From assembly GCA_965204235.1 (NCBI GenBank), contig OZ241979.1, positions 3,109,902-3,173,901 on the forward strand: DNA of 64,000 nucleotides, read 5' to 3'. Positions within the stretch are counted from its first letter, which is position 1, and every line of letters starts with the position of its first letter. Below are positions 8,563-38,057 of the stretch, piece by piece. The stretch is from an uncultured Candidatus Binatia bacterium. GTDB lineage: Bacteria > Desulfobacterota > Binatia > UBA9968 > JAJDTQ01. Position numbers and translations under genes: made by a program. A model generated the notes under the pieces. It did no database searches and was not told the origin of the DNA. It saw only the letters and a program-made list of their open reading frames with translations.

Positions 8563-11500
8563 CTTCTGACCCCTCATGGGGAACGGTCACCTCACCGCGC
8601 CCCTGTCCCCGTCCCCCGGTGTGTACCTCCTAACCCCTCATGGGGAACGGTCACCCGCGTCGCGGAAGTACTGCGTCACCTCGTTACGCCCTCCTAACCC
8701 CTCATGGGGAACGGTCACCCCTGGCGCGATGATGGCCACCGGCCGCCCCGCGTGCTCCTAACCCCTCATGGGGAACGGTCACCTGGACCCTCCCCCTGCG
8801 GCGCTACCGCAGCGCCCTCTCCTAACCCCTCATGGGGAACGGTCACCTGGACCCTCCCCCTGCGGCGCTACCGCAGCGCCCTCTCCTAACCCCTCATGGG
8901 GAACGGTCACCGTCGGCGATCAGCCCTTCGACCTGCACGGTCTGCGACTCCTAACCCCTCATGGGGAACGGTCACCAGGAGCATCTGCGACTCCTGGCCG
9001 CGGAAGTCCACCTCCTAACCCCTCATGGGGAACGGTCACGGCACAGATCGCCTTCCACCGGCTGGCCCTGATGAGCTCCTAACCCCTCATGGGGAACGGT
9101 CACCCGACAGATCGATCTCCACCGGGACTGCCGACGCAACTCCTAACCCCTCATGGGGAACGGTCACCGCCGGTCACCCGGGCCATGACTCCCGTGGTGA
9201 GACGCTCCTAACCCCTCATGGGGAACGGTCACGCTACCAGGTCGGACGATGACCTCGGCTTCGGCGCCCTCCTAACCCCTCATGGGGAACGGTCACCTGG
9301 ATTTCGTATGCCTGCCCCTGGGTAAGTCCGGTCTCCTAACCCCTCATGGGGAACGGTCACGCGATACATATTGGCATTCTCTGTAATCTTTGCAGTAGCT
9401 CCTAACCCCTCATGGGGAACGGTCACCGCGGGCCAGGGGATGTCCGCGGGCCAGTGGTCGGACTCCTAACCCCTCATGGGGAACGGTCACTCTCGTGGCC
9501 CCGGACTCCACCGACTCCGTGACGCGCTCCTAACCCCTCATGGGGAACGGTCACCGGCACCCCGGCCAGGTGGAGGGCGTCCTCATGTCGGCTCCTAACC
9601 CCTCATGGGGAACGGTCACACATTTCCAGGTGCCCGGTCGCGGCCCGTCACAAGGCTCCTAACCCCTCATGGGGAACGGTCACCGGCAGCGGGTCCCGCG
9701 GCGTGGCTCGGACTGCTGCCTCCTAACCCCTCATGGGGAACGGTCACCGGCGTTGGTGGCGCGGGTGGACGAGCGGACCCGGATCTCCTAACCCCTCATG
9801 GGGAACGGTCACCGTATAGAACGACCCGTAGTTGGCAGGGGTGGTGACCAGCTCCTAACCCCTCATGGGGAACGGTCACTCGGACTCCTCCTTCTCCCGG
9901 TCCGCAGCATGGTTCTCCTAACCCCTCATGGGGAACGGTCACTCTCTCCTTTCGGGGGCGCACGGCCCCAGGTTGATGAACTCCTAACCCCTCATGGGGA
10001 ACGGTCACTCGTCCCATGCCCGCCTGACCTCGGAGTCCGTGTCCTCCTAACCCCTCATGGGGAACGGTCACTCCACAGTCCTGGGCCGGGACCTCCAGAG
10101 CTCCGTCTCCTAACCCCTCATGGGGAACGGTCACACTGATACCAGCGGCCGAGCGCCGCGTGGTCGATCTCTCCTAACCCCTCATGGGGAACGGTCACGG
10201 CTGGCCCCCCGAGCCAGGGCCGGGCTCCACGTGTCTCCTAACCCCTCATGGGGAACGGTCACCCCACGCCTCGTCGCGCTCGGCCGCGGACACGTCCAGC
10301 TCCTAACCCCTCATGGGGAACGGTCACCGGCCCGGCCAGTTGCTCCGTCAGGGCCTCGTCGAGCTCCTAACCCCTCATGGGGAACGGTCACGGGTCTCGG
10401 TCACCATGGCCCGGCCCACGTCGTCCAGCTCCTAACCCCTCATGGGGAACGGTCACACGACCGAATGCTGCGCCGACGAATGCCAGAGATACTCCTAACC
10501 CCTCATGGGGAACGGTCACACGGCGGACCTGGAAGACTTGGACCGCCAGATCGACCTCCTAACCCCTCATGGGGAACGGTCACTGGAAAGTTCGTCCGGG
10601 CGTCCCGAAGGGAGAACTCTCCTAACCCCTCATGGGGAACGGTCACACGGCCTGGCGGAGGTCGCCGAGCCGCTCGACCATCTCCTAACCCCTCATGGGG
10701 AACGGTCACCCCTTCCGCGTCCTTGACATGCAGCGCGGCGATAACCTCCTAACCCCTCATGGGGAACGGTCACTCCACGCTAGTCGGGCAGTATCTGTCC
10801 ATCGACTATCTCCTAACCCCTCATGGGGAACGGTCACGTTAGCAGGTGAGAGGGTTACTGAGGGTAGGGACAACTCCTAACCCCTCATGGGGAACGGTCA
10901 CCGCCCTCGGCCCTGCGCACAGGTCTGGATGAGATGCTCCTAACCCCTCATGGGGAACGGTCACTTGTACGCACCCCTGTGCTCCCTGGTGGGAGAGGGA
11001 CTCCTAACCCCTCATGGGGAACGGTCACCGGGTGGCGTGCCAGTCTCCCCGCGTCCGGTCCGTCTCCTAACCCCTCATGGGGAACGGTCACCGTCCTGGC
11101 GCAGCAGCTCGAGCTCCGGAGGGAGGACTCCTAACCCCTCATGGGGAACGGTCACAGGTGCTCACGTCCTGCTGCGAGGAGAGGGCCGAGTCTCCTAACC
11201 CCTCATGGGGAACGGTCACCGGAGCCTATCGGTGGACGGCGCGCGGCCAGTAGCTCCTAACCCCTCATGGGGAACGGTCACGACCCGGAGATGCCGACGC
11301 TCCTCGAGGGGTATCGCTCTCCTAACCCCTCATGGGGAACGGTCACTCGCTGGCGCTGGTGCTGCGGGGGATCCGGGAGGTCTCCTAACCCCTCATGGGG
11401 AACGGTCACCCGGCCGGGGGACAGCGTGGAGATCGACGACGAGGTCTCCTAACCCCTCATGGGGAACGGTCACTCCACGTTTAGGAGTTCGCGCGCCTCG

Positions 11501-11728
11501 AGATAATCCTCCTAACCCCTCATGGGGAACGGTCACTGTACTATCAGTCGTATTCCTTGCAGAATGCGGAGGCTCCTAACCCCTCATGGGGAACGGTCAC
11601 CCTGGAGCGTGACCCGGTGGCGCACGTGCTTTCCAACTCCTAACCCCTCATGGGGAACGGTCACCGGCGCCTCGCACGCGCAATCGTCCAGGCACGCTTC
11701 CTCCTAACCCCTCATGGGGAACGGTCAC
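8563..11728 (-). CRISPR. CRISPR array with 50 repeats and 49 spacers. The repeat is CTCCTAACCCCTCATGGGGAACGGTCAC on the + strand (28 bp; transcribed orientation GTGACCGTTCCCCATGAGGGGTTAGGAG). Spacers are 35–39 bp.
   Basis: Repeats found by eye at 8563, 8627, 8691, 8755, 8819, 8883, 8948, 9012, … 11573, 11637 and 11701, about 64 bp apart. The distal repeat at 8563 is degenerate (CTTCTGACCCC…). The leader-proximal end abuts cas2. The repeat has a GTTCCCC-ATGA-GGGG hairpin. Confidence 0.97.
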
Positions 11729-11849
11729 CCCTAGAAAAACAATACCTTGGCGCTCTTGAGGCTTGCTTGCTACCTTCGTTATTGGCCTAAAACTACGTAT
11801 CTTCGCTACGCAGGCAGCCCTTGCCGACACCACCGCCACGAGTAGAAGG
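11729..11849 (-). promoter_or_regulatory. CRISPR leader, AT-richer than the surroundings, between the last repeat and the cas2 stop
   Basis: Sequence ccctagaaaaacaataccttggcgctcttgaggcttgcttgctaccttcgttattggcctaaaactacgtatc… shows a local GC drop. It sits between cas2 (minus strand, transcribed toward the array) and the newest repeat. Confidence 0.55.
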
Positions 11850-12149
11850 TCACAGCACCTCCGTATCATAGATGTGATGCGTATGCGGTTGCGCCTCCAA
11901 GATCCCATTCCCTGCGTTCTTGCGCAATAAAGACACCTCGACGTTGTGTCTGTTCTTGGAAACCACCTCCATGATATCATCCTCGGGCTGCGCGATGGCG
12001 GCAACCTCGCTCCGCAGTCTCTTGAGATCGGAGGCCGTCAAGTTGCCTGCGAATACGGATCTTTGCTCATGCACCAAATATCTCGAGAGCAACTTGCGGA
12101 ACGCTTCTGTTCTGTCGGCGCAGACATCGTAGGCAACCAACACGTACAT
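11850..12149 (-). CDS. cas2: CRISPR-associated endoribonuclease Cas2
   Basis: 99 aa, MYVLVAYDV…, characteristic Cas2 N-terminus and size. Immediately downstream of cas1. Confidence 0.9.
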   Translation of the reverse strand: MYVLVAYDVCADRTEAFRKLLSRYLVHEQRSVFAGNLTASDLKRLRSEVAAIAQPEDDIMEVVSKNRHNVEVSLLRKNAGNGILEAQPHTHHIYDTEVL

Positions 12150-12152
12150 AAT

Positions 12153-13127
12153 CTAAACCTTGCGCTGCCAGGGTTGGAATGGTTCGATCGAAAGAAAATG
12201 GCGTTCAAGGGCGAACGCCTGATCTCGAACAAGACGTCTCAAGGACGCACGGCCATCGGAGATCGTCTCTGTCTTCGACACCCACGCCTTGATCGTTGCC
12301 TGTTTCCCGGAGGGCGTCAGGCGACATACGCCTTCTTCCTGATGAAACCAGTTCGCTCTGAGGCGGTCCCGGAGCACGACTTCAAATACAAGGGTATCGC
12401 AAATAGCCGGTTTGAATATCTCCGACAAGTCCAAACCCAGAGAGTGGCGGGCGTCTCTCGGTGAGTGAAGAAAGGAAATGCTGTCGTCCAGATGTGTTTT
12501 GCCGATCTCGTTCCTGGCCATGGCATAAGCCAGGCCGTTGAACCAAGAGATCAGGCAATTGACGGGATTGTTCGGCGGTCTCCGGTGGCGCGGAGTGAAA
12601 TCCAAACGTTTGTCGATAACTGCCCACGACTGGTAGTACCAGCCTCTCGCGTTGCCTTCGAAGCCCATCAATTCCGCGGTCGACTGTGCCGTTTTCAAGC
12701 TGTGGGACAAGTCCTGAAGCTTGGCAATAAACTCGTCGAGATCGCGGTTGCCGCGATAGGATCTGTAACGGAGATTGGTGATCATGTTGCCGATAGCGCC
12801 GGAAACGAACACTCTAGCCAAGTGCATCTTCTTCTCGTCGTCCAGTGCGTGGTTGGCTTGAGCCAAATGGACACGTCCGGATGATGGAGACCCCGCGGGT
12901 TCAAATGTACCAGTCACGTTGCCGTACCAATCGAGGATGGAAACGCGGACCCCGGCCCTGCCAAGGAGATTGAGCAGACTGGTTGTCATGCCGGCTTCCC
13001 CCGCTACAATCACGTGCTGAAGACCGGCGATGGGAATCCGTCGCTTCGACTCACCGCAGGCCTGAACGAGTAGAGTCGAACCTTCTCGGGACAGCTTGGC
13101 GTCCCTGGTGAGATAGAGTGTTTCCAT
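12153..13127 (-). CDS. cas1: CRISPR-associated integrase Cas1
   Basis: Start METLYLTRD at 13127 (the annotated ORF extends to 13169). Cas1-like throughout (…LVQACGESKRRIPIAGLQHVIVAGEAGMTTSLLNLL…). Its ATG overlaps the TGA of cas4 by 1 nt. Confidence 0.9.
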   Translation of the reverse strand: METLYLTRDAKLSREGSTLLVQACGESKRRIPIAGLQHVIVAGEAGMTTSLLNLLGRAGVRVSILDWYGNVTGTFEPAGSPSSGRVHLAQANHALDDEKKMHLARVFVSGAIGNMITNLRYRSYRGNRDLDEFIAKLQDLSHSLKTAQSTAELMGFEGNARGWYYQSWAVIDKRLDFTPRHRRPPNNPVNCLISWFNGLAYAMARNEIGKTHLDDSISFLHSPRDARHSLGLDLSEIFKPAICDTLVFEVVLRDRLRANWFHQEEGVCRLTPSGKQATIKAWVSKTETISDGRASLRRLVRDQAFALERHFLSIEPFQPWQRKV

Positions 13128-13690
13128 CAACTGTAGCCACAGAGGAACCGATACGAACAAGCGGCGCATAACTTGATACGTTTTGCCGATGGCGGATCAC
13201 TCTGCCTGCACAACTCCGAGAGTCTCTTGGCCAGTCGAAGCATTTCCTGCACCAACGCATCGCTTATCTTGACCGAGCGTATGCGTCGTTCTTCCAGAAT
13301 GCTGGTCTGTGCCCGCCAAGGTTGTCCGGTGGCAGCCCAAAGCAGCAACGCATAGAGCGCCGTCTGACGCGACACTGCCACCTGCGCGCCTGACCGTGCC
13401 TTTGCTTCGATAACGATACGATTGGCCCAATCGATCTGGTCCGGAAACAGTCCCATCAGCCCATCTACCGACCTGTCCCGCGGCTTGTTGATCTGATGAG
13501 CGACGATTCCGTTCGCCATCCGCTGGTCCATATGCGCGTAGTCGATGCGGTTAAGATGGAACCACGCCCGACGCTCACAAAGTGAAACGTGCTGGAAATG
13601 GAGACCATGCAAGTCTTCCGATTCCACGATCCTCGCGAACTCACGAACCTCGTCAGGCACTTTTCGACGCGAGTGGTTAGAAGACAACAT
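13127..13690 (-). CDS. cas4: CRISPR-associated exonuclease Cas4 (RecB-like nuclease with C-terminal Fe-S Cys cluster)
   Basis: The C-terminus CAACSYRFLCG plus an upstream Cys (…HFQHVSLCERRAW…) form the typical 4-Cys Cas4 arrangement. It has a RecB-like nuclease core. The start was chosen at MLSSNH (13690). In-frame starts at 13717 and 13792 are possible. Confidence 0.8.
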   Translation of the reverse strand: MLSSNHSRRKVPDEVREFARIVESEDLHGLHFQHVSLCERRAWFHLNRIDYAHMDQRMANGIVAHQINKPRDRSVDGLMGLFPDQIDWANRIVIEAKARSGAQVAVSRQTALYALLLWAATGQPWRAQTSILEERRIRSVKISDALVQEMLRLAKRLSELCRQSDPPSAKRIKLCAACSYRFLCGYS

Positions 13691-15659
13691 TGTTCCCTCC
13701 TTCGACCGGCGGTCCATCTTCCTCTGACGGAACGATACCCGACATTTCGACAAGTTTTCGTGCGGCTTCGAGCACCTTCCTCTGTTCCCCATCGAGTATC
13801 TGTCTGGACATCGCCTCCGCTTCGCGCAGCCAGCCCTTCTTGAGATCGCGCGCGTCCAGTTGGACTACGCTGCTCTTATGGGGGAAGATCGCATCCACGG
13901 ACATCATCCATTTCCTTCGGTCGCTACCGCGAATCGCTTCGTCCAGCCTGGAATCGAGATGCACCACCATTGAGCCGTCATCGTGGACGACTGCGGGCGC
14001 GCTGCAGAGATCTATATGCGAAGCGTAGATATTCCATGGGACATGCTTTGTCTTGCCGGTCGTATCCTTGACGGGCACGCTGGGCAGAATGACCCGGAGA
14101 CGTAGCGCTTCGTCGAGGAAGCGCTTCACCCAGCGTTGGGCCGAGTCCAGGCCGCTCCTCTCAATGACTTGGAGTCGTCCTCGGACGTACTTGGCTCGGA
14201 CCGGCGCAACGCTGGACAGCGTTCGCCGTTGGCCGCGGCCTATGTGGCCTGCGGACTCCAGGGCAGCCCAGAACACGGCTGCGCACCACACGGCTCGTTG
14301 CGGCATGCTGCCATAGATGCGCGGCGGTTCATCGCCGCCCAAATCGTTCGCGGCGAATCGTCGATGGTTGGCTTCGAGGACCGCGCCAGCGAATCGCCCG
14401 ACTTCGATGGGTGATCCATCGATAGGCAGACCGCCAACGTGCAGCAGCGTCTTTAGCCAAGCCCTGGTTTCGCGCGCTCCGCGGCTGACGCGAATCACCA
14501 CCTCGCCATTCTCGTCACCGCGAGCCACGCGCCCAGCTCGTTGCACCAGGGACGTCGCGTCATGTCCCGGGTCCGTGACCATCATTCTCGCACGAAAGGT
14601 AACGCCCATTTCGATGGACGACGTGGCGACCAATGCCTTGTAACTCATCGGATCGCAATCTCTCCCGACGTCAAACAAGGTGTCGTGGCCGGCGCCCGAA
14701 TCGACTGAATCGTCGATGCTGTTGATGGCGAGCCTCTGTCCCCTCTCCACCCCGATGTGATCGAACCACTTGGCGAGGTCTTCCTTTTCCCGGTTCAGGT
14801 CCCCGAGCGAATCGTACACCACAACGATCTGCTTTCCCTCGGTGAGACAAGCTTTCGCCGAGTCCTCCCTCGAACACAATGCTTCCACCATGCTTTCGCA
14901 CTCGACGAACTGATAAGAGACATCGCCATGCACGGCACGGGCATTACCGGTGTCCTCCTTCGGGCCGGTGATTATTTCCTCGGACCCCGTTGATGCCTGG
15001 ATGGTCGTGTCGAATGCCGCCAACGGCTTTGCAACATCGATTGGCGTAGCGCTGAGAAACGTGACTTGTGCGGCCTCCGGTAAAGCAGAGGCGAATCTCG
15101 TCACCACCGCCGCCAGACCCAAACCACGTGCGTCGATGGTGTGGAATTCATCGAATACGATATGGTCGAACCGCATCAAGTCGGTGACGTCTATCGGCAT
15201 GACCCCATGTGGACGAGATGAGGGGCGAAGCAGAAGCCATGCGACGGACTCGGGCGTTGCAATCACAATGCAACCGCCTTCAGGCAGCTCGTATCCCCGG
15301 ACTTGTCGGAGGCGCAGCCTGCCGACGTCGAGACTCGGATTCTCCTGTCTCAGACGCGCTCGCTCGTCCGACGTCCAAATGGCGATCCTACCCACATCTC
15401 CCGACCTTCGGTTCAGGTCTTCAGCTATCGAGCGTGCAAGATTCTGGGCCAGTCGACGAGTTGGCACCACGAACAGGACACGCTTGTCCTGATGGACAAC
15501 GGCGTGCTGAAAGGCGTAGCTCTTGCCCGCTCCGGTAGGGGCGGAGAAAATCCGTACCCGCGCCGGGTCTTCGAGCAGCCATCGTTGGCGTGGGGACAGT
15601 CCGTCAACACCGGTCGGTACGCAATGTCGGACTACCCGGAAATCAGGGAGGTCGGGCAT
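13677..15659 (-). CDS. cas3: Cas3' helicase (SF2 DExH helicase without an HD domain)
   Basis: 660 aa. Walker A FSAPTGAGKSYA is about 40 aa from the N-terminus. Motif II is VFDEFH, with the SAT-like motif LSATP and C-terminal helicase motifs. No HD motifs anywhere in the protein. Confidence 0.85.
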   Translation of the reverse strand: MPDLPDFRVVRHCVPTGVDGLSPRQRWLLEDPARVRIFSAPTGAGKSYAFQHAVVHQDKRVLFVVPTRRLAQNLARSIAEDLNRRSGDVGRIAIWTSDERARLRQENPSLDVGRLRLRQVRGYELPEGGCIVIATPESVAWLLLRPSSRPHGVMPIDVTDLMRFDHIVFDEFHTIDARGLGLAAVVTRFASALPEAAQVTFLSATPIDVAKPLAAFDTTIQASTGSEEIITGPKEDTGNARAVHGDVSYQFVECESMVEALCSREDSAKACLTEGKQIVVVYDSLGDLNREKEDLAKWFDHIGVERGQRLAINSIDDSVDSGAGHDTLFDVGRDCDPMSYKALVATSSIEMGVTFRARMMVTDPGHDATSLVQRAGRVARGDENGEVVIRVSRGARETRAWLKTLLHVGGLPIDGSPIEVGRFAGAVLEANHRRFAANDLGGDEPPRIYGSMPQRAVWCAAVFWAALESAGHIGRGQRRTLSSVAPVRAKYVRGRLQVIERSGLDSAQRWVKRFLDEALRLRVILPSVPVKDTTGKTKHVPWNIYASHIDLCSAPAVVHDDGSMVVHLDSRLDEAIRGSDRRKWMMSVDAIFPHKSSVVQLDARDLKKGWLREAEAMSRQILDGEQRKVLEAARKLVEMSGIVPSEEDGPPVEGGNNVVF

Positions 15660-15660
15660 G

Positions 15661-16359
15661 TCAGTCGCCGACGAAAGGGGGCCACGTTCCGACTATCTCC
15701 GCTGCAACGGCGAGAGGCACGGGGATGGTGACCTGGATGTCATGGAGCGCATAGACCGCCACCTTCATCCGCGGGTCGCCATCCACATCGTACCCTGCCA
15801 AGTCGGCAGTCCAGGCGTTGAGCCTTACCCTTACTTCCCTGTCTTGGATAGGTGTACGTTCGAGTCTGAGCAGGCCGCTGAGATGCCGTCCCGTACGGAG
15901 TACGAGACAGTCCACGTCACGGTCGTCTGCTTCACTCGCAAGGGCGAACGGGTCGGGGCCAAATATCGCGCCGTCGTAAACGGTGTTGGGAGGCACTTCC
16001 TGAACGGAAAACCAGGTCTTGAGATTGCCAGTGCCGGTCGCGTCTTGAAGCCGCTTCTGGTAACCTCCCTCTTCGTCCAGGTTCAGCCGTTTTCCCAACG
16101 GACTCATGAGGCTCGGCTCGCGCGCCTCGAATACGGAGGCGATCCACGGCAACGCGAGCAGGTCGCGCCGATAATCCTTCCGAGGCAACGCCGGGGATGC
16201 GGCGAGGGCGCCCATCGCAGCCGCAAGAGCGTAACTGATGGCGCGGTCGGCAAGGTAAGGCGCCAGCGTCGCCGTACCCGAAGGTACGGCAAGGCTGTGA
16301 TAATGGAACGGCGCCAACGTAGTCGCACGAACCGGCGTAGCTGTCGGTGGACTCGTCAT
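15661..16359 (-). CDS. cas5: Cas5 family protein (Csc1/Cas5d-like, about 230 aa)
   Basis: 232 aa, sits between cas7 and cas3'. Gly-rich and RAMP-like. The size matches Csc1. The assignment rests mainly on position and size. Confidence 0.6.
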   Translation of the reverse strand: MTSPPTATPVRATTLAPFHYHSLAVPSGTATLAPYLADRAISYALAAAMGALAASPALPRKDYRRDLLALPWIASVFEAREPSLMSPLGKRLNLDEEGGYQKRLQDATGTGNLKTWFSVQEVPPNTVYDGAIFGPDPFALASEADDRDVDCLVLRTGRHLSGLLRLERTPIQDREVRVRLNAWTADLAGYDVDGDPRMKVAVYALHDIQVTIPVPLAVAAEIVGTWPPFVGD

Positions 16360-17375
16360 CTCCTTCCAAATCCATCAAACCAGCTATCGAAGAACTCTCC
16401 CACCTTTGCGTCCACGTCGCTGTAGCGTTGCCGCATGGCCGAGTCGTCCGCTTCGAGGTGTGCGATCATGTCCGACTGAAGAGCTTGTACGTCGCTACCC
16501 GCAAGCCTCGTCGAGTATGCTGCCGAGAATTGCCGGTCCAGTTCATCCTTCACCACGGAAGCGGTCATCTCCTCGACATCCTCCATACTTTCGTGAAGTT
16601 TACGCAATGCAACGTAGGGGCTTGCGACATCGCGTTCGAGACGAGCGCCGTAGATGCCAATAACGTGGTTACGGACGTTGATGCCGTAGATGGACGTCTG
16701 ACCACCGTAGGCGCCAGCCAAGCCGATGGCGAGCAGCAGATGCTCCAGTGCAACCGGCGGCGCAGTCCTGCCGTTAAACGATATGGTCTGGATCAACAAC
16801 GTACCTGGTAGCAGGATGTGACGCTCGAAGATGTTGGACGAGTTCTTCTTGTCTTCCGCATCGAACAGCGTGCCATCCTCGGCTGCCCTGTTGTGGAAAG
16901 TGCTTTCGACGCAATCCGCGTAAGGTTGCACGGACAGAGCATCCGAATACTGCGCCGCGGCCTTGACCGGCAGCACGCGGTTGCCGTGGTTGGCGCTGTC
17001 ACCAAAGATCACCGTGTTGAGATCGTACCTCGTGCTTGGTCGATCCCCAACGGAGAAGGCCGTCTTGTTCTGCGGTTGCCGTCCGCCGGCGTCGAAATAC
17101 CGCAGCACTTGCAGTCCTCGCGCCCGTTCACCATACTTGAACTTGTTGGCGACCGCGCGAACACGGCGCTTGCCGACCAAATCCAGGATGTCGGTGATCT
17201 CGGGCTCGGCGTTCCGGAAGGATGCCGGCGCAATGACTTCCCGCACCAGCGGAACGACCACGGAGCCAAGATTCTTCAACGCCGGCTGGACATACTCCTT
17301 GCCCTTGTCGTCCTTGGCCGTTGCCAACATCCGGTCGAGGTCTCCAAGGTACGGGTGGATCGTGTCGAGACTCAT
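16356..17375 (-). CDS. cas7: Cas7 family backbone protein (Csc2/Cas7d-like)
   Basis: ATG at 17375 (MSLDTIHPYLGDL…) with a GGAGGAG RBS 7 nt upstream. The annotated ORF start at 17525 is probably spurious. About 340 aa, RAMP-like Gly-rich segments. ATGA-type overlap with cas5. Confidence 0.65.
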   Translation of the reverse strand: MSLDTIHPYLGDLDRMLATAKDDKGKEYVQPALKNLGSVVVPLVREVIAPASFRNAEPEITDILDLVGKRRVRAVANKFKYGERARGLQVLRYFDAGGRQPQNKTAFSVGDRPSTRYDLNTVIFGDSANHGNRVLPVKAAAQYSDALSVQPYADCVESTFHNRAAEDGTLFDAEDKKNSSNIFERHILLPGTLLIQTISFNGRTAPPVALEHLLLAIGLAGAYGGQTSIYGINVRNHVIGIYGARLERDVASPYVALRKLHESMEDVEEMTASVVKDELDRQFSAAYSTRLAGSDVQALQSDMIAHLEADDSAMRQRYSDVDAKVGEFFDSWFDGFGRR

Positions 17376-17392
17376 TCTTGCTCCTCCATCAG

Positions 17393-20272
17393 TTACGGGG
17401 CATTGGTTTCGTCCGATTTGTACTGCGCGGCGCGCGCGGCGCGCTCGAAGCTGATTCTGTAGATCGCCAGGGCGATCCGTCGTTGTCGCGTGGAAGGAAA
17501 GCGGCATCGAAACGCCACAGGCCACACGGCGTCGATGAAGAGCCGTGCGGCTTCTTCCACGGCCGTGTGCGACGCCGACTTGCGCCGCATAAAGAGGTCC
17601 TTCCGTTCAAGTTCTTTCGAGAGCGAACCGGCGACCGCGGCAGCCAGACTCTCCGGGGAAGTCTGGCCTAGCTGCGATGCGCTCTCAACGGCCTCCAGGG
17701 CGAGTCGGAAACCCAATTCCGAAATAGTGTCGCCATCGGAGAAGATTGGCGCTCGCTGCACATGGCTCATCGCCTCGGCGTAACGGATGATGACGTCGTC
17801 GGTCTTGGTGTGCATGTCGGTGTCCTCAATCAGTTTCAAGAGTGAGTATTCCAGATAGGCGGGAGGCGGTGGCCCTTGGCCAGTGACCAAGCGTTTGATT
17901 CCGACAACCGCTTCACAAGCAGCACCGAAGCGGGTCTGAGGGTCCGCGACGCGGGCAGCGATCTCTAGACCCAATCCCCGAGCCGAGGCGACATCTTCGA
18001 CCAGGCGAAGCAGCTCGATCTTGGACGGCAGTTCTTCCAAACGGAAGGATGCGCCTCCCAGCGCAACGACCAAAGGAGGCGGCAAGAAGTCGAAGCTCAC
18101 GAAGGCCGGGTTCGGCCGCGGCAGGCCGCGAAAGACATGTAGCGGGCGTCCCATTCGTCGAGCGGCCTCGAAGACCATCTTGACGAAGGAGACGATGCCA
18201 ATGTTCTGACCGCGTGATACCATGCGGGAAGGCAGCGATTCGTAGCGGCCGATGAGGTGACGGCGTTCAATGACATCCACGGCGCGGAACTCAGGTACAT
18301 CCGGCTTCCTCTTTTCACGCAGCACCTCGGTCAACGCAAACTCCACCGGCAGTTCGTCGGTCTGGTAAACCAAGCTGCCGAACAAGCCTCCCGTGGTTGG
18401 CGACGAAACGAAAACCGGGATCTCGGCCCGCCCCGACCGTCTAGCTCTACGGCTCCGTAGCTGATGCTCGGCCTGCGCAAGAGGAGAGACCAGTGTCTCG
18501 GCTCTTGTCCTGCTGAACGACTCACGGCGACCTTCCCGACCCGAGAACGCACTCACGTTGAGGCCGTAGAGGCCGGTCGCAAGTTCGATCCGCGAACTGC
18601 GCGGCACAGGAGTGTTGGTAAAGTGGCAACGCCCCTCCGCGTTCTCGTCGGCCCTCACGACACTGCCTCGAGCTGCCGCAAGGAACCAATCGCACACCGG
18701 AGTAGCGAACCGCTCCCGCGAGCCGTCGATCTCTGGTAACAAACCGCCGCGCTCCGAAGTGCCACGCAGCCATTGATCCACCACTCCGCCTTTCTCAAGC
18801 AACGGGCAATCACCCCGGGTTGCCGCCGCGGCCAAGGCCGCAAGCAGGTTGCGACGACTGATGTCGTGGTCAAGTGCAATTAACCATTCCGGAACATGGA
18901 CGCCCATCTGGTCGAGGAAATGGAACAACTCCTTCTCCCTCGTTTCGACGTCCGGCGCGCTGGCGTCCAAAGCGCGATGGGGCGCCTTGCATCCCAAGGC
19001 GATGGCGACCGTAGCGGCCCGTACGACGAAGGTCCCCTCCTCATCTCCTTCGTCCCCTCCCGATCCCGGCCAAGGTGTAACGAATCGTCCGGTGTGCTTG
19101 TCGAAGTCCGGCCACCGCGGCGGCAGCGCGTATCCGGCAAAGAGGCCATCGATCCGCTGCCTTTCGTCCATTCCGTCATCGGAGGCCACGCAATCGACGG
19201 AGATCTGCAACGACCTGCGGGCCGTGGCTGGATCCCTATCGAGATGGTGGTAGAGGTCGTGCACGTCTTTCCCGCCGTCGCGGATATCGGAGGTGCCTCG
19301 GGCGCTGATGTGGACGCGCAAAGGCAGGTCGAAAACGCCAGCCAGTTTATCGAGAGCGGCACCATACGCCTCGTCGAATCCTTCCTCGGGCGCCACGAGC
19401 AAGAGTTCGCCGTCGTGATGGACTTCGATCAGGGGAGGATGTCCATATCGCTCGACAGATGCGCAAGAAAACGCGCTTTGCAGCTCGTCCAGGAGAAAAG
19501 GTGTATGCGGCGACGTAATCTTCGCCGCACGCCAGCCACGCAGCACGTCCGTGCGCAAGTTGTCGAACCGCTGCAATTCGTTGACGACCTCGTCTACGCC
19601 CCTGCGGGTATCCAGGTAAATGCCGTCGAGGCGGTCCGCCAACGTCACATAGGCACAGTCGCCGATCTCCCGGTTGGTGAGCAACGGTCCGCCGGGCCGT
19701 ACTCGACCGGCCCGCGTGAGTTCCACTTGGTCGATCAGGGAAGCCATGCGTTCGGGGTCGATCTTGTTGCCTGCCACCGAGAGAAATTGGTCGATGCGGT
19801 AAACCCGCATGAGTTCGCCGACCTTGCCGGGATCCAGTTCTTCGCGACGGTCCTGCTCCAACATTTTGTCCGCGTCGTGCAGGAAGGCGACCGCCGCCAC
19901 TACGACGAGGCGACGCCGCAGATCCGGCAAGGGCGTCCTCGCCGCCTTGAGGTCGATTTCCGCAAATACCAGCGCCCCGCGAACCACACTGGACAGGTGT
20001 TCGATGAGGCTTACGTTGACGAACGGTTCGCGTTGCTGCTTGAACGTGCGCTGGTCAGGGAGCCAGCCTCCTTTCCCCGACAACGTTGCTAGGTGCGGCG
20101 GCCTGGAATCGACCCGGACTCCTCCTTCGATCTCTTTTCTCCGTTCGTCGCCGAGCGGACGGGCGCCCCCGCGGTCCCGCTCACCGGTAGAGAACACGCC
20201 GTCCCTGACAACGTGCTTCAGGAAGTCTCGATAGACATCCCTGGCTTTGTCAATGGTTGGGGCGGCCGTCAT
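17393..20272 (-). CDS. cas10d: Cas10d-like large subunit with N-terminal HD nuclease domain
   Basis: About 960 aa. HD motifs near the N-terminus: …SLIEHLSSVV… and …VAFLHDADKM…. A Cys pair (PVCDWF…GRCHF) looks Zn-finger-like. Start MTAAPTID at 20272 overlaps the cas6 stop (ATGA). Confidence 0.75.
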   Translation of the reverse strand: MTAAPTIDKARDVYRDFLKHVVRDGVFSTGERDRGGARPLGDERRKEIEGGVRVDSRPPHLATLSGKGGWLPDQRTFKQQREPFVNVSLIEHLSSVVRGALVFAEIDLKAARTPLPDLRRRLVVVAAVAFLHDADKMLEQDRREELDPGKVGELMRVYRIDQFLSVAGNKIDPERMASLIDQVELTRAGRVRPGGPLLTNREIGDCAYVTLADRLDGIYLDTRRGVDEVVNELQRFDNLRTDVLRGWRAAKITSPHTPFLLDELQSAFSCASVERYGHPPLIEVHHDGELLLVAPEEGFDEAYGAALDKLAGVFDLPLRVHISARGTSDIRDGGKDVHDLYHHLDRDPATARRSLQISVDCVASDDGMDERQRIDGLFAGYALPPRWPDFDKHTGRFVTPWPGSGGDEGDEEGTFVVRAATVAIALGCKAPHRALDASAPDVETREKELFHFLDQMGVHVPEWLIALDHDISRRNLLAALAAAATRGDCPLLEKGGVVDQWLRGTSERGGLLPEIDGSRERFATPVCDWFLAAARGSVVRADENAEGRCHFTNTPVPRSSRIELATGLYGLNVSAFSGREGRRESFSRTRAETLVSPLAQAEHQLRSRRARRSGRAEIPVFVSSPTTGGLFGSLVYQTDELPVEFALTEVLREKRKPDVPEFRAVDVIERRHLIGRYESLPSRMVSRGQNIGIVSFVKMVFEAARRMGRPLHVFRGLPRPNPAFVSFDFLPPPLVVALGGASFRLEELPSKIELLRLVEDVASARGLGLEIAARVADPQTRFGAACEAVVGIKRLVTGQGPPPPAYLEYSLLKLIEDTDMHTKTDDVIIRYAEAMSHVQRAPIFSDGDTISELGFRLALEAVESASQLGQTSPESLAAAVAGSLSKELERKDLFMRRKSASHTAVEEAARLFIDAVWPVAFRCRFPSTRQRRIALAIYRISFERAARAAQYKSDETNAP

Positions 20273-20979
20273 CGCAGCATCACCGGGCACCCAAAGCCGC
20301 CGCGGGTCTTTGCGCCAAGACCCGCAAAGTAGGCGAAACGCACATCGTCCGGCCTGCCTCGGACCGTGAGCGGCATGGAAAATGCGGGTATGAGAATGCG
20401 TCTGCTCCCCGCCTGGCGTGTGGGAACGAGGCGACGCCGACCATCGACCGCTCGCGTCAGCGGGTCGACTTGGAAGTCGATGTCCAGATCGCGGCTCGCA
20501 CGTCTTTGCAGACCGGCGCGCAACGCGGCGGCGAGGTCCACGCCGTCAAGGTCATCGTGGAACTCCGTCTTCGTACGACCGGCCTTGGGCTTGATGATCG
20601 CGAAGGGACTGCCGAAGGCAACAGCCAGTTCAGACACGGCACCGTGGGGTAACCTCGCCTCGTCCTCGATTTTCGCACCCTTGAAGTCCAGTATGTCGCC
20701 ATTGGACGAGTGCGCGCACATCGCGGCCGGGTTCAACCTGCGCAGTGCATCAGCCAATTGCACGTCCGGTGTAGATACCGTAAGGCCGGATACGAAGGTC
20801 AGGCCGCCAAGCTGCGAGAAGCCCTTGACGGCGAACGTCCAGGGCACGGCCTTTGAGCCAACCACGCTGGCGGACGCGGCTCCAGCGTCCACCAGTCCTG
20901 CGACGATGGCCGCGTTGACTGAATCCAGATAGAGAAATCGAGGTGACGGAGGGTCGAAAACCAAACGAATCCTGTGCAT
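20269..20979 (-). CDS. cas6: Cas6 crRNA endoribonuclease
   Basis: 236 aa. The C-terminal glycine-rich loop GLGAKTRGGFGCP matches the Cas6 GhGxxxxxGhG signature. First gene of the minus-strand cas operon. Confidence 0.8.
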   Translation of the reverse strand: MHRIRLVFDPPSPRFLYLDSVNAAIVAGLVDAGAASASVVGSKAVPWTFAVKGFSQLGGLTFVSGLTVSTPDVQLADALRRLNPAAMCAHSSNGDILDFKGAKIEDEARLPHGAVSELAVAFGSPFAIIKPKAGRTKTEFHDDLDGVDLAAALRAGLQRRASRDLDIDFQVDPLTRAVDGRRRLVPTRQAGSRRILIPAFSMPLTVRGRPDDVRFAYFAGLGAKTRGGFGCPVMLR

Positions 20980-21045
20980 AGCCGGTTCTCCCTTCGACTT
21001 GCCAACACCATATACTTGTCCTCTGCTATATGCAAGGACCCTATC

Positions 21046-21062
21046 TGTGATAAAATATCACA
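21046..21062. promoter_or_regulatory. perfect 7-3-7 inverted repeat TGTGATAaaaTATCACA in the divergent cas6 / regulator intergenic region; candidate operator
   Basis: Read directly from the sequence at 21046..21062. It lies 3 nt upstream of the regulator ATG (21065) and about 70 nt upstream of the cas6 start (20979), in an AT-rich 85-bp divergent promoter region. Confidence 0.55.
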
Positions 21063-21064
21063 TC

Positions 21065-21898
21065 ATGAAAGGCAACAAATTCATTAGCGCCATCTCGGTA
21101 TTCGAGTTCCTGGCGTTCTGGCGTGGCGGCGTAACGGCGAAAGAGCTGGGACGGTTCTTGGGCATGAGCCGTGAGGCGGCCCAGCGGTCCGTGGTTGGGC
21201 GGTACAAAGACGAGTTTCCGCAAGCAACAGTGATCAGGGAGGGCCGCACATACATCGACGGAGACGCCTACAGCTTGAAGGCATCTCCCTGGAAGGTCGC
21301 TGACCTCATCAACTTCACGAGCGCCGTTCATGCCTTCGCGGACGCCATCGGCAAGGAGTCTCCACTCGACGTGCCCATCGAAGATGTCGTCAGTTCTGTC
21401 AACAACGAGGGCGAGGTTGAGGGGGTTCGCGCGCTGTACGGCGCCACCGCCCATCGGCGGACCGTGTACCTCGACTACCGTGCGAAACGAGGGCGCATCC
21501 AGTTGGTTTTCAGCCCTCACGCGGTGGTCCGGACGCCGATGCGTATCCATTTCCGCGGCCATGCCGTCTGGCTTTCCGACAACGAGAGCCGATACATCGA
21601 TGTCGTGCCGGGACGGATCATCAAGGGCACATTGGGTGGCACGGACGAATACATCGGATCGGCGAACGACGTCGAATGGCGCCAACGCACTTCCATCGTC
21701 GCCGAGATCAATCCACGCCTTCCCGACGAGGTCAAGGAGAGCGTGAAGCAGGAGTACGCCTGCGACGATCTATTGGTGATAGAAGGCGTGAGGAAAGCTG
21801 TGGCTCATTACGTTGTGGATTGGCTGACCGGACGCAGACTGCATGGTGTCTCTGAACCCATCTGGAGGCTCTCAGAGAAAAGTCTGCGCAAGTCCTGA
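21065..21898 (+). CDS. HTH transcriptional regulator, WYL-domain-like (putative CRISPR-Cas regulator)
   Basis: N-terminal wHTH (ISAISVFEFLAFWRGGVTAKELGRFLGMSREAAQRSV), followed by a beta-rich domain with W/Y/L-containing segments (RRTVYLDY…HAVWLSDNESRYIDVVPGRIIKG). Divergent from the cas operon. Type I-D loci are known to carry a WYL repressor (Synechocystis sll7009). Confidence 0.5.
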   Translation: MKGNKFISAISVFEFLAFWRGGVTAKELGRFLGMSREAAQRSVVGRYKDEFPQATVIREGRTYIDGDAYSLKASPWKVADLINFTSAVHAFADAIGKESPLDVPIEDVVSSVNNEGEVEGVRALYGATAHRRTVYLDYRAKRGRIQLVFSPHAVVRTPMRIHFRGHAVWLSDNESRYIDVVPGRIIKGTLGGTDEYIGSANDVEWRQRTSIVAEINPRLPDEVKESVKQEYACDDLLVIEGVRKAVAHYVVDWLTGRRLHGVSEPIWRLSEKSLRKS

Positions 21899-21982
21899 AC
21901 TTTGCCGACTTTGCCGCAATGTATCCGGTCTCGGCACAAGGAGGCAGGTGACGCGGGCGACGTCTTCGGCGGCCGGCGTCGC

Positions 21983-22879
21983 TCAGCCGCCCGCGGCCCA
22001 CGGCGCAAGCCATTGGGAAGCCAGTTCCGGGACGGTCACCCGGGCGCCCGGCGCGGTCAGCCGCACCAGTTGCTCCACTTGGGAGAGATCGACGGTCAGG
22101 CCCTCGTCCAGCGTCAAGAGGTAGTCGTCGTAGAGGGCCGCGGCCAGGACCGGAACGTACCCGAACACGCGCCGGAGCATCGCCAAGGTCTCGCTTCGGC
22201 GCTTCTTGAGGCAGCGGACGCCTTCCCTGTGGGCGGTGAGGAACGCCGCCATCGCGTCTCCCCTTTCAGTCAGGAGGGACGCCGTGGTCTCGATGGTGAT
22301 GGGCAGAGGGTCCGCCGCCACCTCCGGCCAGCCGGGCACCGGTACGAAGCCGCGTTGCAGGGCCACGAAATCGAAGGGCCGGGGCAACAGGGCCGCGCCC
22401 GCGGCGCCCTCCGAGAGCCGGTCCAGGGCGTGCTGGTCGGTGTCCACCGGTTCGATGGACACGTCCCTGTCCGGTGCGAGGCGGCCGCGGTCGAGAAGGG
22501 TCTCGGCCAGCGGCGCCGCTTCCGCCACGCTCCTGCGGCACGCCAGGGACTTGCCCCTGAGGTCCGGGACGCCGTGCACCTCGGGCGGGGCCACCAGCAG
22601 GTAGGGGCTGCGGTTCATGCACGAGCCGATGACCCGCGTCGCTCCCGAGTCGAGAAAGTGCTGGAGCGACGCCCGTCCGATGACCAGGGACAGGTCGGCC
22701 TCGCCGTCCGTCAGCGCCTGAAGGCGCTCGTCGGTGCCCTGGACGTGGTCCCAGGACACCTCCAGACCGTGCCGCCGGTAGATGTTCCTGTCGAGGGCCA
22801 GGTACCCCGTGGGGTCCCGGGCCACGCACTCGCCTTCCTCCCCGATAACGCCGTACAGGACCCTCAGCCTTGCTTCCAT
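21983..22879 (-). CDS. NMT1/THI5-like (SsuA/TauA-type) substrate-binding domain protein
   Basis: ATG at 22879 (MEARLRVLYGVIGEEG…). Periplasmic-binding-protein type 2 fold pattern. No obvious signal peptide. Confidence 0.45.
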   Translation of the reverse strand: MEARLRVLYGVIGEEGECVARDPTGYLALDRNIYRRHGLEVSWDHVQGTDERLQALTDGEADLSLVIGRASLQHFLDSGATRVIGSCMNRSPYLLVAPPEVHGVPDLRGKSLACRRSVAEAAPLAETLLDRGRLAPDRDVSIEPVDTDQHALDRLSEGAAGAALLPRPFDFVALQRGFVPVPGWPEVAADPLPITIETTASLLTERGDAMAAFLTAHREGVRCLKKRRSETLAMLRRVFGYVPVLAAALYDDYLLTLDEGLTVDLSQVEQLVRLTAPGARVTVPELASQWLAPWAAGG

Positions 22880-24183: not shown

Positions 24184-25209
24184 ATGAGCGGGATGAAGTT
24201 CGGCTTGCTGGTGGATTGCCACGTCCGCGAGGGCCGGGGACAGACCCTGGCCTTCGACGAGATGTTCGGGCAGGTGGACGCGGCCGAGGCCATGGGCATG
24301 GACTCCATCTGGATCGTGGAGCACCACTTCCGGCCCAAGGCGTCGGTGCTCTCGGCCTCCATGGCCGTGGCCGGCGCCATCGCCTCCCGCACCGAGCGCG
24401 TGCGCATCGGCACCGCGGTCCAGGTGCTGCCTTTGGGGAACCCCCTTCGCATCGCGGAGGAGGCCGCCACCATCGACCACATGAGCCGCGGGCGCTTCGA
24501 CTTCGGCGTGGGCCGAAGCAGCATCCCGAAGTTCTACGACGGCTTCAACATCCCCTACTCGGAAAGCACCCCGCGTTTCGCCGAGTCCCTGGAGATCGTA
24601 CTGCGGGCCTTCACCCAGGACACTTTCTCCTTCGAGGGGGACTACTATTCGTACCACGACGTCAGCATATCGCCGCGGCCGCTGCAACGGCCTCACCCGC
24701 CCATCTACATGGCGGTGCGCACCCCCGAAGGCTTCGCCGCCACCGCCAGACGGGGCTTCTCCGTGGTGCTCTGGTTCATGGGCGACTACTACGAAGAGTG
24801 CCTGCAAGCCTATCGAGACGCATGGCGGGAGGCAGGCCACGCCCAGGCGCCCCAAATCCAGGTGCGCGTGCCCTTCTTCGTCGCGGAGTCCGAGACCCTG
24901 GCCCGGGAGACCCCGAAAGCCAGCGTGGTCCACGACCTCCACCGGGTCATCGGCGAAGCCCAGATCATGGGCGCAGCCGACCGGGTGGCCAAGGCCCGGG
25001 AGTTCCTGGACGACTACGACGAATTCCTGCGCACCCGGGTGATCTTCGGCACGCCCGAATCGGTCATCCATCGCATCGAGGAGTTCCGCGAGCGCATGGG
25101 ACTGACCGGCCTGATCCTCGACATGAACCACGGCGGCCAGATCCCCCAGGAGCACGTGCTCAACTCCATCCGCCTGCTCACCGAGAAGGTGGCGCCGCGG
25201 TTCGCCTAA
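24184..25209 (+). CDS. LLM-class flavin-dependent oxidoreductase (luciferase-like monooxygenase)
   Basis: 341 aa with the typical LLM N-terminus (…LAFDEMFGQVDAAEAMGMDSIWIVEHHF…RIGTAVQVLPLGNPLRIAEEAATIDHMS…). Confidence 0.8.
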   Translation: MSGMKFGLLVDCHVREGRGQTLAFDEMFGQVDAAEAMGMDSIWIVEHHFRPKASVLSASMAVAGAIASRTERVRIGTAVQVLPLGNPLRIAEEAATIDHMSRGRFDFGVGRSSIPKFYDGFNIPYSESTPRFAESLEIVLRAFTQDTFSFEGDYYSYHDVSISPRPLQRPHPPIYMAVRTPEGFAATARRGFSVVLWFMGDYYEECLQAYRDAWREAGHAQAPQIQVRVPFFVAESETLARETPKASVVHDLHRVIGEAQIMGAADRVAKAREFLDDYDEFLRTRVIFGTPESVIHRIEEFRERMGLTGLILDMNHGGQIPQEHVLNSIRLLTEKVAPRFA

Positions 25210-27875: not shown

Positions 27876-27914
27876 CAGCGCAGCGCGGGCAGAGGCAGGA
27901 AACGGAGCCCCGGG

Positions 27915-28421
27915 TCAGGCGCGGGGCTCGCTCGCAGGAAGGCGTTTTACGTGCGCGTGACTGGCAATGCGCTTCCGATGACAAGCCACCTGGTTTTCCA
28001 ACTCCCGGAAAGCGGTCAATCCACGCAGAAGGCCAAAGTCGCCAATCTGCTCAGCCACAAGCTGTACACACTTGCCCAAATCCCGATGGAAACGTTTCAA
28101 CCGTCGTCCTCGAAGGCCGCTAGCCTGCCTGAGCAAGCCGTGGAGGACCGTCTTGGGATCCGGCAGATTTTCGAGCTCCCTCACCTCCGGCATGGATAGA
28201 CTCTGGCGGCTCGCCGGATTTCCCGCGGCTTTCTTCAGGGCGGATTCGTCGATGAGCAACCACGCTTCCTGCATTCGTACCGGAACCACGCAGACGACCG
28301 GCAGGGTCTTTCCCCTCTCGCTCCGTTCCAAAGCCTTGCGGATTTCTTCCTGCCGTTTCTCCACTGATTCGCCCTCCGCGTCCCGATGCACGAAGAGCAG
28401 GTCGCAAGGGTACAGTTCCAT
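27915..28421 (-). CDS. DUF4276-like protein, partner of the upstream AAA ATPase; possibly N-terminally truncated
   Basis: 168 aa, …TLPVVCVVPVRMQEAWLLIDESALKKAAGNP… resembles the conserved core of DUF4276. Its frame stays open upstream (…IPIQREFSDLRRLRNPPRDLFQRIDKS-M…) with no start codon there, so the N-terminus may be lost. Confidence 0.5.
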   Translation of the reverse strand: MELYPCDLLFVHRDAEGESVEKRQEEIRKALERSERGKTLPVVCVVPVRMQEAWLLIDESALKKAAGNPASRQSLSMPEVRELENLPDPKTVLHGLLRQASGLRGRRLKRFHRDLGKCVQLVAEQIGDFGLLRGLTAFRELENQVACHRKRIASHAHVKRLPASEPRA

Positions 28422-28610
28422 GCTCTTGTCGATGCGCTGAAAAAGATCTCGGGGAGGATTCCGAAGCCGTCGCAGATCGGAGAATTCCCGCTGGATGGGA
28501 ATGCCTTCACAATGCTGGCGCAGCAGCTAGGTGAGAACGGGTAGGAGCGCCCGGTCGGACGAGCCGTCAGCCACCAGCGTAAAGCGCAGTCTTTCCACTC
28601 GACACCGGAT

Positions 28611-30100: not shown

Positions 30101-30284
30101 GTCCGAATTACCGATCGACGAGTTTCAGCCGTCGTCATCGAGCACACCGCCCAGCCCGCTACGCCCGTCCTCAGCGGCTCGGAACCGCACCCGCGGCGCA
30201 ATGTCCTCCGGCAGTGCGACGGTGACGTTCTCCATGGCTCCAAGGTAGTGGAACACCGGATTTGCGTCAACGGGCGACGGCAGG

Positions 30285-33566: not shown

Positions 33567-34210
33567 GGGTTTGCCTGCACGAACGGCAAGAGGGAGTGAC
33601 GAATCTCCATCCACCGACCATCTCGTACATGCCCTGTGACGAAGCGCTGAACGACGCCGATGGGCGAATCCACCTGAAGCTCTCCTTGCAACCCAAGGCC
33701 AAGCCGCTTCGTCATCATCGCCGCCTCGATGTGCGAGAAGGCGAAATTCATGTCGCCATCCATGACGTAGCCCATCATGCAGCCAACCGGCAGACCTTCG
33801 GCGTACTTCTCCGTGACGAAGCGCATCATGCCGTCTTCGCCGACGTAGGCGCCCGCTTGCGAACGCTTCGCGCCGTCCGTGCCCGTCACGTTGAGCCGTT
33901 TGCATTCATAGGCGAGATAGGTATTTCGGTCGTTATCGACGATCACGGCGAGATCGACACGTGACGCTCCGGTGAGCGTGCCGCGGGGAGAACGTGTGAA
34001 GGGGTGGAACTGGTACTCGAAGTAGAATTCGTCTCTTGCCTCGGCGTCTCTGGAGAGACGGGCGACCAACGCCACCGTGATCGTGTCTTCGCATGAAGAA
34101 GGCGGCAGATGGGCAATCGCCTGCTGCCAGACCCGTGCGACGCAGTGCAGGAACTTCCAATCGGTGACGCGGAACTTCACCACCCAGCTCCGCCCCTCGC
34201 CGGACACCAT
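33563..34210 (-). CDS. small protein with a PD-(D/E)xK-like motif (putative nuclease), translationally coupled between the two methyltransferases
   Basis: 215 aa. …RVDLAVIVDNDRNTYLAYECKRL… fits the D…(D/E)xK arrangement of the restriction-endonuclease fold. Overlaps both neighbours by 4 nt. Confidence 0.4.
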   Translation of the reverse strand: MVSGEGRSWVVKFRVTDWKFLHCVARVWQQAIAHLPPSSCEDTITVALVARLSRDAEARDEFYFEYQFHPFTRSPRGTLTGASRVDLAVIVDNDRNTYLAYECKRLNVTGTDGAKRSQAGAYVGEDGMMRFVTEKYAEGLPVGCMMGYVMDGDMNFAFSHIEAAMMTKRLGLGLQGELQVDSPIGVVQRFVTGHVRDGRWMEIRHSLLPFVQANP

Positions 34211-34212
34211 CG

Positions 34213-37292: not shown

Positions 37293-37302
37293 CCCAGGCA
37301 AC

Positions 37303-38055: not shown

Positions 38056-38057
38056 GC

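Follow-up and report, generated by a model that had tools for sequence, protein, structure and literature searches.

We examined a 64,000-nucleotide (nt) stretch of DNA from an uncultured Candidatus Binatia bacterium (contig OZ241979.1), referred to here as the window, with all coordinates counted from its first letter. The window carries a CRISPR-Cas locus of type I-D. Eight open reading frames (ORFs) lie upstream of a CRISPR array on the same, minus, strand, in the order cas6, cas10d, cas7d, cas5d, cas3', cas4, cas1, cas2, leader and array, and a further ORF diverges from them on the opposite strand (Table 1). A first-pass annotation, made from the sequence, had listed the operon and array in this order, and all of these elements were recovered where it had placed them. 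The ORFs of all nine genes are intact, their junctions are tight or overlapping, and their ribosome-binding sites are good. Several likely start codons lie inside longer ORFs. The longest cas4 and cas7d ORFs reach 13792 and 17525, respectively, and the cas10d ORF extends to 20290 and would encode 965 amino acids (aa). The cas10d ATG at 20272 overlaps the cas6 stop by 4 nt, and the resulting 959-aa product is identical to a database protein (P0001). For cas1, a probable or at least conceivable start is the ATG at 13127; this codon overlaps the stop of cas4, and the product would have 324 aa. The regulator ORF spans 20999–21898 on the plus strand, its real start probably being the ATG at 21065.

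Table 1. Features of the window's type I-D CRISPR-Cas locus.
Feature	Coordinates	Strand	Evidence
CRISPR array	8563..11728	-	Tandem Repeats Finder, direct reading, script count
Leader, AT-rich, ~120 nt, from cas2 stop to first repeat	11729..11849	-	Sequence; orientation inferred
cas2, 99 aa	11850..12149	-	PF09827 and TIGR01573 above cut-offs; best PADLOC profile Cas2b
cas1, ORF of 338 aa	12153..13169	-	PF01867 1.4e-74
cas4, 187 aa from likely ATG 13690, AAGGAGG upstream	13127..13690	-	PF01930 2e-18; PADLOC Cas4d 6.7e-59
cas3', 660 aa, helicase-only	13677..15659	-	PADLOC Cas3d 5e-140
cas5d / csc1, 232 aa	15661..16359	-	PADLOC Cas5d 1.9e-87; AlphaFold2 model matched to 7sba_H
cas7d / csc2, 339 aa from likely ATG 17375, GGAGGA upstream	16356..17375	-	TIGR03157, PF18320, five PADLOC Cas7d profiles
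cas10d, 959 aa from likely ATG 20272; N-terminal HD nuclease domain	17393..20272	-	PADLOC Cas10_Id 1.2e-263; HD motifs; AlphaFold2 model
Candidate internal cas11d, 140 aa	17393..17815	-	In-frame ATG 17815, GAGGA upstream
cas6, 236 aa, first gene of the operon	20269..20979	-	PADLOC Cas6d 5.4e-38; PF01881 above cut-off
Perfect palindrome TGTGATAAAATATCACA, candidate operator	21046..21062		Sequence; function inferred
Divergent regulator, 277 aa, BrxR/CapW family, wHTH-WYL-WCX	21065..21898	+	Profile of 13 orthologues

Every effector gene was assigned to subtype I-D by its PADLOC profiles. The large subunit covers positions 3–928 of the 934-position Cas10_Id profile that it matches best and matches a second Cas10_Id profile over its full length (1.2e-183), with no match to any PADLOC Cas8 profile, Cas8b and Cas8c included. 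The first-pass annotation had placed the HD nuclease motifs on a large subunit of roughly 960 aa, and we located them there: LIEHL at residues 95–99 and FLHDADK at residues 136–142 of the 965-aa ORF. The H, HD, D and K residues of these motifs are invariant across 36 homologues (31–65% identity). Cas3' aligns to positions 4–631 of the 641-position Cas3d profile and retains its helicase motifs (Walker A APTGAGKS, DEFH, and motif VI QRAGRVAR). A Pfam scan detected only the DEAD, ResIII, Helicase_C and Cas3-like_C_2 domains in the cas3' product, and no HD family, in agreement with the earlier description of a helicase-only Cas3; the HD domain that might have been overlooked elsewhere in this gene was searched for and is not there. 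Cas7 scores above the curated cut-offs of both Csc2 families (TIGR03157, 45.6 bits, cut-off 38; PF18320, 49.2 bits, cut-off 25.5), and the five Cas7d profiles that it matches are the same five matched by the Cas7d of Synechocystis, to which it also shows weak similarity by BLASTP. Cas6 matches only Cas6d and generic Cas6 profiles, with neither Cas6e nor Cas6f found in PADLOC or Pfam. Cas5 was matched by no NCBIfam or Pfam family.

Sequence and profile comparison of Cas10d and Cas5d with their Synechocystis counterparts found nothing, and membership was therefore tested by fold. An AlphaFold2 (AF2) model of the large subunit, built on the 36 homologues (predicted local distance difference test score (pLDDT) 86, predicted template modeling score 0.82), was searched against the PDB using Foldseek and returned exactly four matches at E ≤ 0.001. 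All four are Cas10d chains: 7sba_I, from the Synechocystis I-D Cascade (E 1.4e-11, template modeling (TM) score ~0.5, ~12% identity), and 6thh_C and 6yes_A/B, from Sulfolobus islandicus LAL14/1 (E 1.6e-8 to 1.5e-5). The AF2 model of Cas5 (pLDDT 83) was most similar to 7sba_H, the Cas5d of the same Synechocystis complex (E 3.3e-5, TM 0.52). The locus is thus identified as I-D by its architecture, by the sequence of Cas7 and by the fold of its two most diverged subunits, and it is a genuine and complete type I-D locus. The typing bears out the original proposal of type I-D, through the Cas10_Id, Cas5d, Cas3d, Cas4d and Cas6d profiles, the Csc2 cut-offs and the folds, and the large subunit did not turn out to be Cas8b or Cas8c, as it might have done under profile typing. 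We conclude with high confidence that the window holds an intact type I-D adaptive immune system belonging to a rare and strongly diverged lineage; the host most likely acquired the locus horizontally.

We compared the locus to the characterised I-D systems. The Synechocystis sp. PCC 6803 system (pSYSA CRISPR1; Cascade 7SBA/7SBB) has the same set of components, namely an HD-bearing Cas10d of ~960–975 aa in both, a helicase-only Cas3', Cas7d/Csc2, Cas5d/Csc1, Cas6, Cas4, Cas1 and Cas2, with an array downstream. Both have spacers of ~35–36 nt, a repeat hairpin followed by 7 nt at the repeat 3' end, an internal methionine ~140–146 residues from the Cas10d C-terminus with a purine-rich site upstream, and a divergent WYL-type regulator upstream of the operon. 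However, Synechocystis places its divergent WYL regulator before cas3'-cas10d-cas7d-cas5d-cas6-cas4-cas1-cas2, whereas the window has cas6-cas10d-cas7d-cas5d-cas3'; relative to this order, cas6 and cas3' have exchanged places, just as the first-pass annotation had noticed. The Synechocystis order and a repeat of ~37 nt are typical of I-D without being among its defining traits. The repeats differ in length (37 nt in Synechocystis, 28 nt in the window), the regulators belong to unrelated subfamilies, Cas1 and Cas2 of the window are closer to I-B profiles, and for Cas10d and Cas5d the likeness is one of fold (TM ~0.5, 12–13% identity). The Sulfolobus islandicus system (6YES/6THH), whose Cas10d shares the fold of the window model at ~12% identity, is archaeal and has a Csa3/CARF regulator rather than a WYL protein. 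It represents another lineage with a rearranged gene order, according to the legend of Supplementary Figure 1 of a review (PMC10212523).

The arrangement seen in the window recurs elsewhere. A scan of one genome per species gave 17 related loci, mostly from Alpha- and Gammaproteobacteria, with Cas10d identities of 36–58%. All 17 have the order cas6-cas10d-cas7-cas5-cas3', continuing into cas4-cas1-cas2 where the contig allows, the divergent regulator is common to 16 of them, and the repeat is 28 nt long in each of the 16 that include an array. The gene order is thus a trait of the lineage, not a rearrangement, since order, divergent regulator and repeat length recur together. The repeats of the related loci have the conserved core CCCCATGAGGGG in common, with TTAGGAG or something close to it directly after the core, while repeat positions 3–9 vary freely. 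Arrays of the same type are found on plasmids of Paracoccus liaowanqingii and Roseomonas marmotae, and about 145 clusters at 90% identity are present in a database of 5.8 billion sequences. In two related loci the array follows directly after cas3' (L006, 16597–16905; L013, 16566–16897) and cas4-cas1-cas2 are absent, so some members of the lineage are without an adaptation module of their own.

The lineage is systematically under-annotated. In the locus on the Roseomonas marmotae plasmid p1318-7 (L019, 3838–13090), RefSeq names only Cas6, Cas7d, Cas1 and Cas2; the large subunit, Cas5 and the regulator are each entered as 'hypothetical protein' and Cas3' as 'DEAD/DEAH box helicase'. With the large subunit and Cas5 labelled in this way, too few loci of this kind are called when neither subtype-specific profiles nor structure comparison is applied. 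No mention of the repeat core sequence was found in the literature searched, and a literature search for type I-D Cas10d in Alphaproteobacteria turned up only work on the cyanobacterial system.

Two I-D-labelled profiles match the window Cas10d over its full length, and one does likewise for the window Cas5d. The Synechocystis Cas10d matches eight other Cas10_Id/Cas10d profiles and neither of these two, and the same holds for Cas5d. Thus, I-D comprises several mutually unrecognisable profile families, of which this lineage has its own, and in the 2025 classification Cas10d is divided into distinct profile subfamilies. The lineage could be seen as a separate, as yet unnamed I-D variant or even as a new type I subtype, since its Cas10d and Cas5d resemble their Synechocystis counterparts neither by sequence nor by profile and have a structural identity of ~12%, its operon order, 28-nt repeat and BrxR-type regulator are distinct and kept across the lineage, RefSeq calls its large subunit and Cas5 hypothetical, and its repeat core did not appear in the literature searched. 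We consider this unlikely. The I-D-labelled profiles cover exactly this Cas10d and Cas5d subfamily, Cas7 is recognisably Csc2, every defining I-D feature is present, and the Cas10d proteins of I-D are already known to fall into several profile families that diverge strongly from one another. Furthermore, a 2023 review (PMC10212523) reports that gene order varies between I-D groups, including the positions of cas3' and cas6, and that the regulator differs as well. The suggestion in the first-pass annotation that this could be an undescribed sub-variant is therefore unsupported, the existing profiles already covering the subfamily and the variability of gene order being published.

A narrower proposal is that the lineage deserves recognition as a distinct, named variant inside I-D, defined by cas6 in first and cas3' in last position, the 28-nt repeat, the BrxR-type regulator and a Cas10d and Cas5d too diverged to be recognised by sequence; we put this forward tentatively, as a possibility that we ourselves doubt. 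If true, the lineage might have its own protospacer adjacent motif (PAM), its own CRISPR RNA (crRNA) architecture and possibly an interference behaviour other than that of cyanobacterial or archaeal I-D. Type I-D is a hybrid of types I and III, is used in arguments on the evolution of type I and is under development for genome editing, and a very divergent branch with compact repeats would widen the sample for comparing how the PAM is recognised, Cas11d translated internally and Cas3' recruited. Apart from the lesson for annotation, the locus challenges nothing that is known.

The adaptation genes bear on a different alternative, in which I-B and I-D are combined in the locus as a chimera or it stands between them as an evolutionary intermediate. 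The best subtype profile for Cas1 is the I-B Cas1b (TIGR03641, 265.8 bits; PADLOC 9.5e-83), with the I-D Cas1d profile scoring lower (TIGR04093, 153 bits), and Cas2 is likewise matched best by Cas2b. However, the Cas1b score lies under the curated cut-off of 304.1. Type I-B systems have Cas8b, Cas7b, Cas5b and an HD-bearing Cas3, whereas none of the effector proteins of the window is hit by a Cas8b, Cas7b or Cas5b profile, and the best fold matches of the large subunit and Cas5 are to I-D. CRISPR-Cas subtypes commonly exchange their adaptation modules, and on their profile scores we read the I-B-like Cas1 and Cas2 as an ordinary instance of such shuffling, not as a sign of an intermediate in the effector genes. 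A chimeric or intermediate origin of the locus is accordingly improbable, and an I-B/I-D effector intermediate, which had been offered as a second option alongside the sub-variant, was rejected with only Cas1 and Cas2 being I-B-like.

The array contains 50 copies of the repeat GTGACCGTTCCCCATGAGGGGTTAGGAG on the minus strand. The repeat is exactly 28 nt long, because the bases flanking it vary, and this length, shorter than the 37 nt of the Synechocystis I-D repeat, agrees with the first reading of the array. Forty-nine of the 50 copies are identical, the sole degenerate copy being the leader-distal one (8563–8590). The array holds 49 spacers of 34–39 nt (mode 36 nt), of which 48 are unique. 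The position of the leader and transcription from the minus strand are deduced from the AT-rich stretch, the degenerate distal repeat and the direction of the cas genes. Spacers 45 and 46 are identical (AGGGCGCTGCGGTAGCGCCGCAGGGGGAGGGTCCAG, 8783–8882), a repeat-spacer unit having been duplicated in the old end of the array. The neighbouring spacers 41 and 42 (9040–9139) have a common core, CCGGTGGA...GATCTGT (85% matches at a period of 64 in Tandem Repeats Finder), and may be derived from related targets or from primed acquisition.

The repeat RNA is predicted to fold into a hairpin whose stem is 4 bp long (CCCC/GGGG) and whose loop is AUGA, and the 7 nt 3' of the hairpin equal those of the Synechocystis repeat in number. 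By analogy, a cut placed one base into the stem would leave a 5' handle of the usual 8 nt. Relative to the Synechocystis repeat, the shortening appears to affect mainly the hairpin and the sequence on its 5' side. The first-pass annotation had likened the GTTCCCC stem-loop to I-E and I-F repeats, a comparison that did not hold: the GTT preceding CCCC is peculiar to this genome and is replaced by CAT, AAT, CAC, AGT or GCT in the relatives, Cas6 is of the Cas6d type, and no Rfam repeat family matched the repeat at E ≤ 1. A Cas6e- or Cas6f-type repeat system was therefore rejected, the resemblance being superficial.

Spacer searches extended to the related loci. The arrays of L006 and L008 gave no protospacer in the phage collection. 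A comparison of 526 spacers, pooled from all arrays, with the window and every fetched locus yielded only chance matches of 17-mers and a single 26-nt match in L013. In the latter, a spacer from the array of L013 agrees at 25 of 26 nt with positions 22363–22388 of the same locus, which could be a self-target or a fragment of a second array.

Within cas10d, an in-frame ATG at 17815 is preceded by GAGGA 7 nt upstream and would start a product of 140 aa. An ATG is present at the aligned position in the window and in all 16 alignable related loci, usually preceded by a purine-rich stretch, and the C-terminal part of the Cas10d AF2 model is a helical bundle. In Synechocystis, Cas11d is translated internally from M830 of cas10d. 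The ATG at 17815 mirrors this Cas11d start and is a suggestive candidate for internal translation.

The window regulator on its own gave no significant Pfam match and only a marginal helix-turn-helix (HTH) match. A profile of 13 regulator orthologues, of which seven match Pfam WYL, was most similar to BrxR 7t8k (6.9e-22, query positions 4–257 of 282), followed by CapW (5.5e-11) and BrxR 7qfz (1.1e-8). The match to the BrxR/CapW regulators (PDB 7T8K, 7QFZ, 9C5G, 7TB6) is near full-length and spans the winged helix-turn-helix (wHTH), WYL and C-terminal domains. In both cases the gene is divergent from, or upstream of, a defence operon, the window regulator accompanying a CRISPR-Cas operon and BrxR/CapW proteins accompanying BREX or CBASS. 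The first-pass annotation had seen in this gene a mirror of the WYL repressor of the Synechocystis I-D system, Sll7009. The position and the wHTH-WYL class stand; homology does not, with no detectable similarity to Sll7009 (profile E 0.75), and a published comparison likewise reports no significant similarity between BrxR and Sll7009. Thus, the regulator mirrors Sll7009 in position and domain class and not by orthology, and an orthologous relationship was rejected.

The palindrome TGTGATAAAATATCACA ends 2 nt before the regulator ATG, within the 85-bp divergent promoter region, and five related loci (L001, L002, L006, L013 and L017) have similar palindromes of the TGTGA/TCACA type in this position. 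BrxR represses defence loci through inverted repeats. The palindrome of the window adjoins the gene of the regulator itself, as do the R-BOX sites to which BrxR binds, and is a candidate operator.

Several points weigh against the assignment to a working I-D system. Cas10d and Cas5d of the window and of Synechocystis show no similarity by BLASTP, by profile searches of PDB sequences or by hhalign, and the transfer of mechanism from Synechocystis rests for this reason on fold and architecture; the TM-scores of the fold matches are only ~0.5. The repeat hairpin has a stem of just 4 bp and its Cas6 cleavage site is assumed by analogy, and a sigma-70 promoter scan of the divergent intergenic region found no consensus. 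The whole array had no protospacer in the phage collection, matched only homologous arrays in the plasmid collection, and six 30-nt spacer scans of IMG/VR gave no match. That the locus is a decaying or inactive relic with a purely formal resemblance to a working system, to which these missing protospacers and the lack of cas4, cas1 and cas2 in L006 and L013 might be taken to point, is very improbable given the nine intact and tightly joined ORFs with good ribosome-binding sites, the conserved catalytic residues, the 49 identical repeats of 50 and the 48 unique spacers, missing protospacers being expected for an uncultured host. Judged from these features, the I-D system is probably functional.

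We propose a mechanism for the I-D system of the window in which the components come from the evidence above and the steps are modelled on characterised I-D systems. The array would be transcribed from the leader adjoining cas2, and Cas6d would cut the 28-nt repeats where the conserved CCCC-AUGA-GGGG hairpin has its 3' base. The crRNAs released would be ~64 nt long, each made up of a 5' handle of 8 nt (GUUAGGAG), the spacer (~36 nt) and a 3' handle that carries the hairpin. On the crRNA, Cas10d, Cas5d, about seven copies of Cas7d and a putative Cas11d from internal translation would assemble as Cascade, which would bind PAM-flanked double-stranded DNA. The helicase-only Cas3' would then be recruited and the HD domain of Cas10d would cut the DNA, while Cas1, Cas2 and Cas4 would insert new spacers at the leader end of the array. 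By analogy with BrxR, the BrxR/CapW-like WYL regulator probably binds the palindrome at its own start codon, and it would repress the locus until relieved by a ligand or a stress signal.

The composition of the locus differs from that of its surroundings. The GC content is 55–63% in the locus relative to a background of ~70%, and the GC content at third codon positions (GC3) is 0.65–0.71 in the cas genes compared to ~0.9 in the flanking genes for RNase R, an EamA transporter and a luciferase-like monooxygenase. The compositional boundary is sharp at both ends of the locus (12001–21900 relative to its flanks). The low GC3 of the cas genes suggests horizontal acquisition, and the locus was probably acquired from a donor of lower GC content. 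Homologues of the flanking RNase R place the high-GC host roughly, as a probable relative of Binatia: identities reach 72–99% to proteins of metagenome-assembled genomes (MAGs) and, among the named matches, ~57–59% to Candidatus Binatia or 'Deltaproteobacteria' MAGs.

A second block of low GC3 in the window is a defence island on the minus strand (25206–41126). It contains a PLD-SNF2 helicase (PADLOC PLD_Helicase, 5e-228), a HEC-01B/HEC-01A pair (27915–28421 and 28847–30100), a DUF1156 methyltransferase (30285–33905) and a DUF499 ATPase (38058–41126). Two further ORFs, 34213–36399 and 36390–37445, align to consecutive stretches of a type IIG restriction-methyltransferase profile and together resemble a split gene. 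The PLD_Helicase, DUF1156_MTase and DUF499 genes look like one system that has been interrupted by the inserted HEC-01 and IIG genes.

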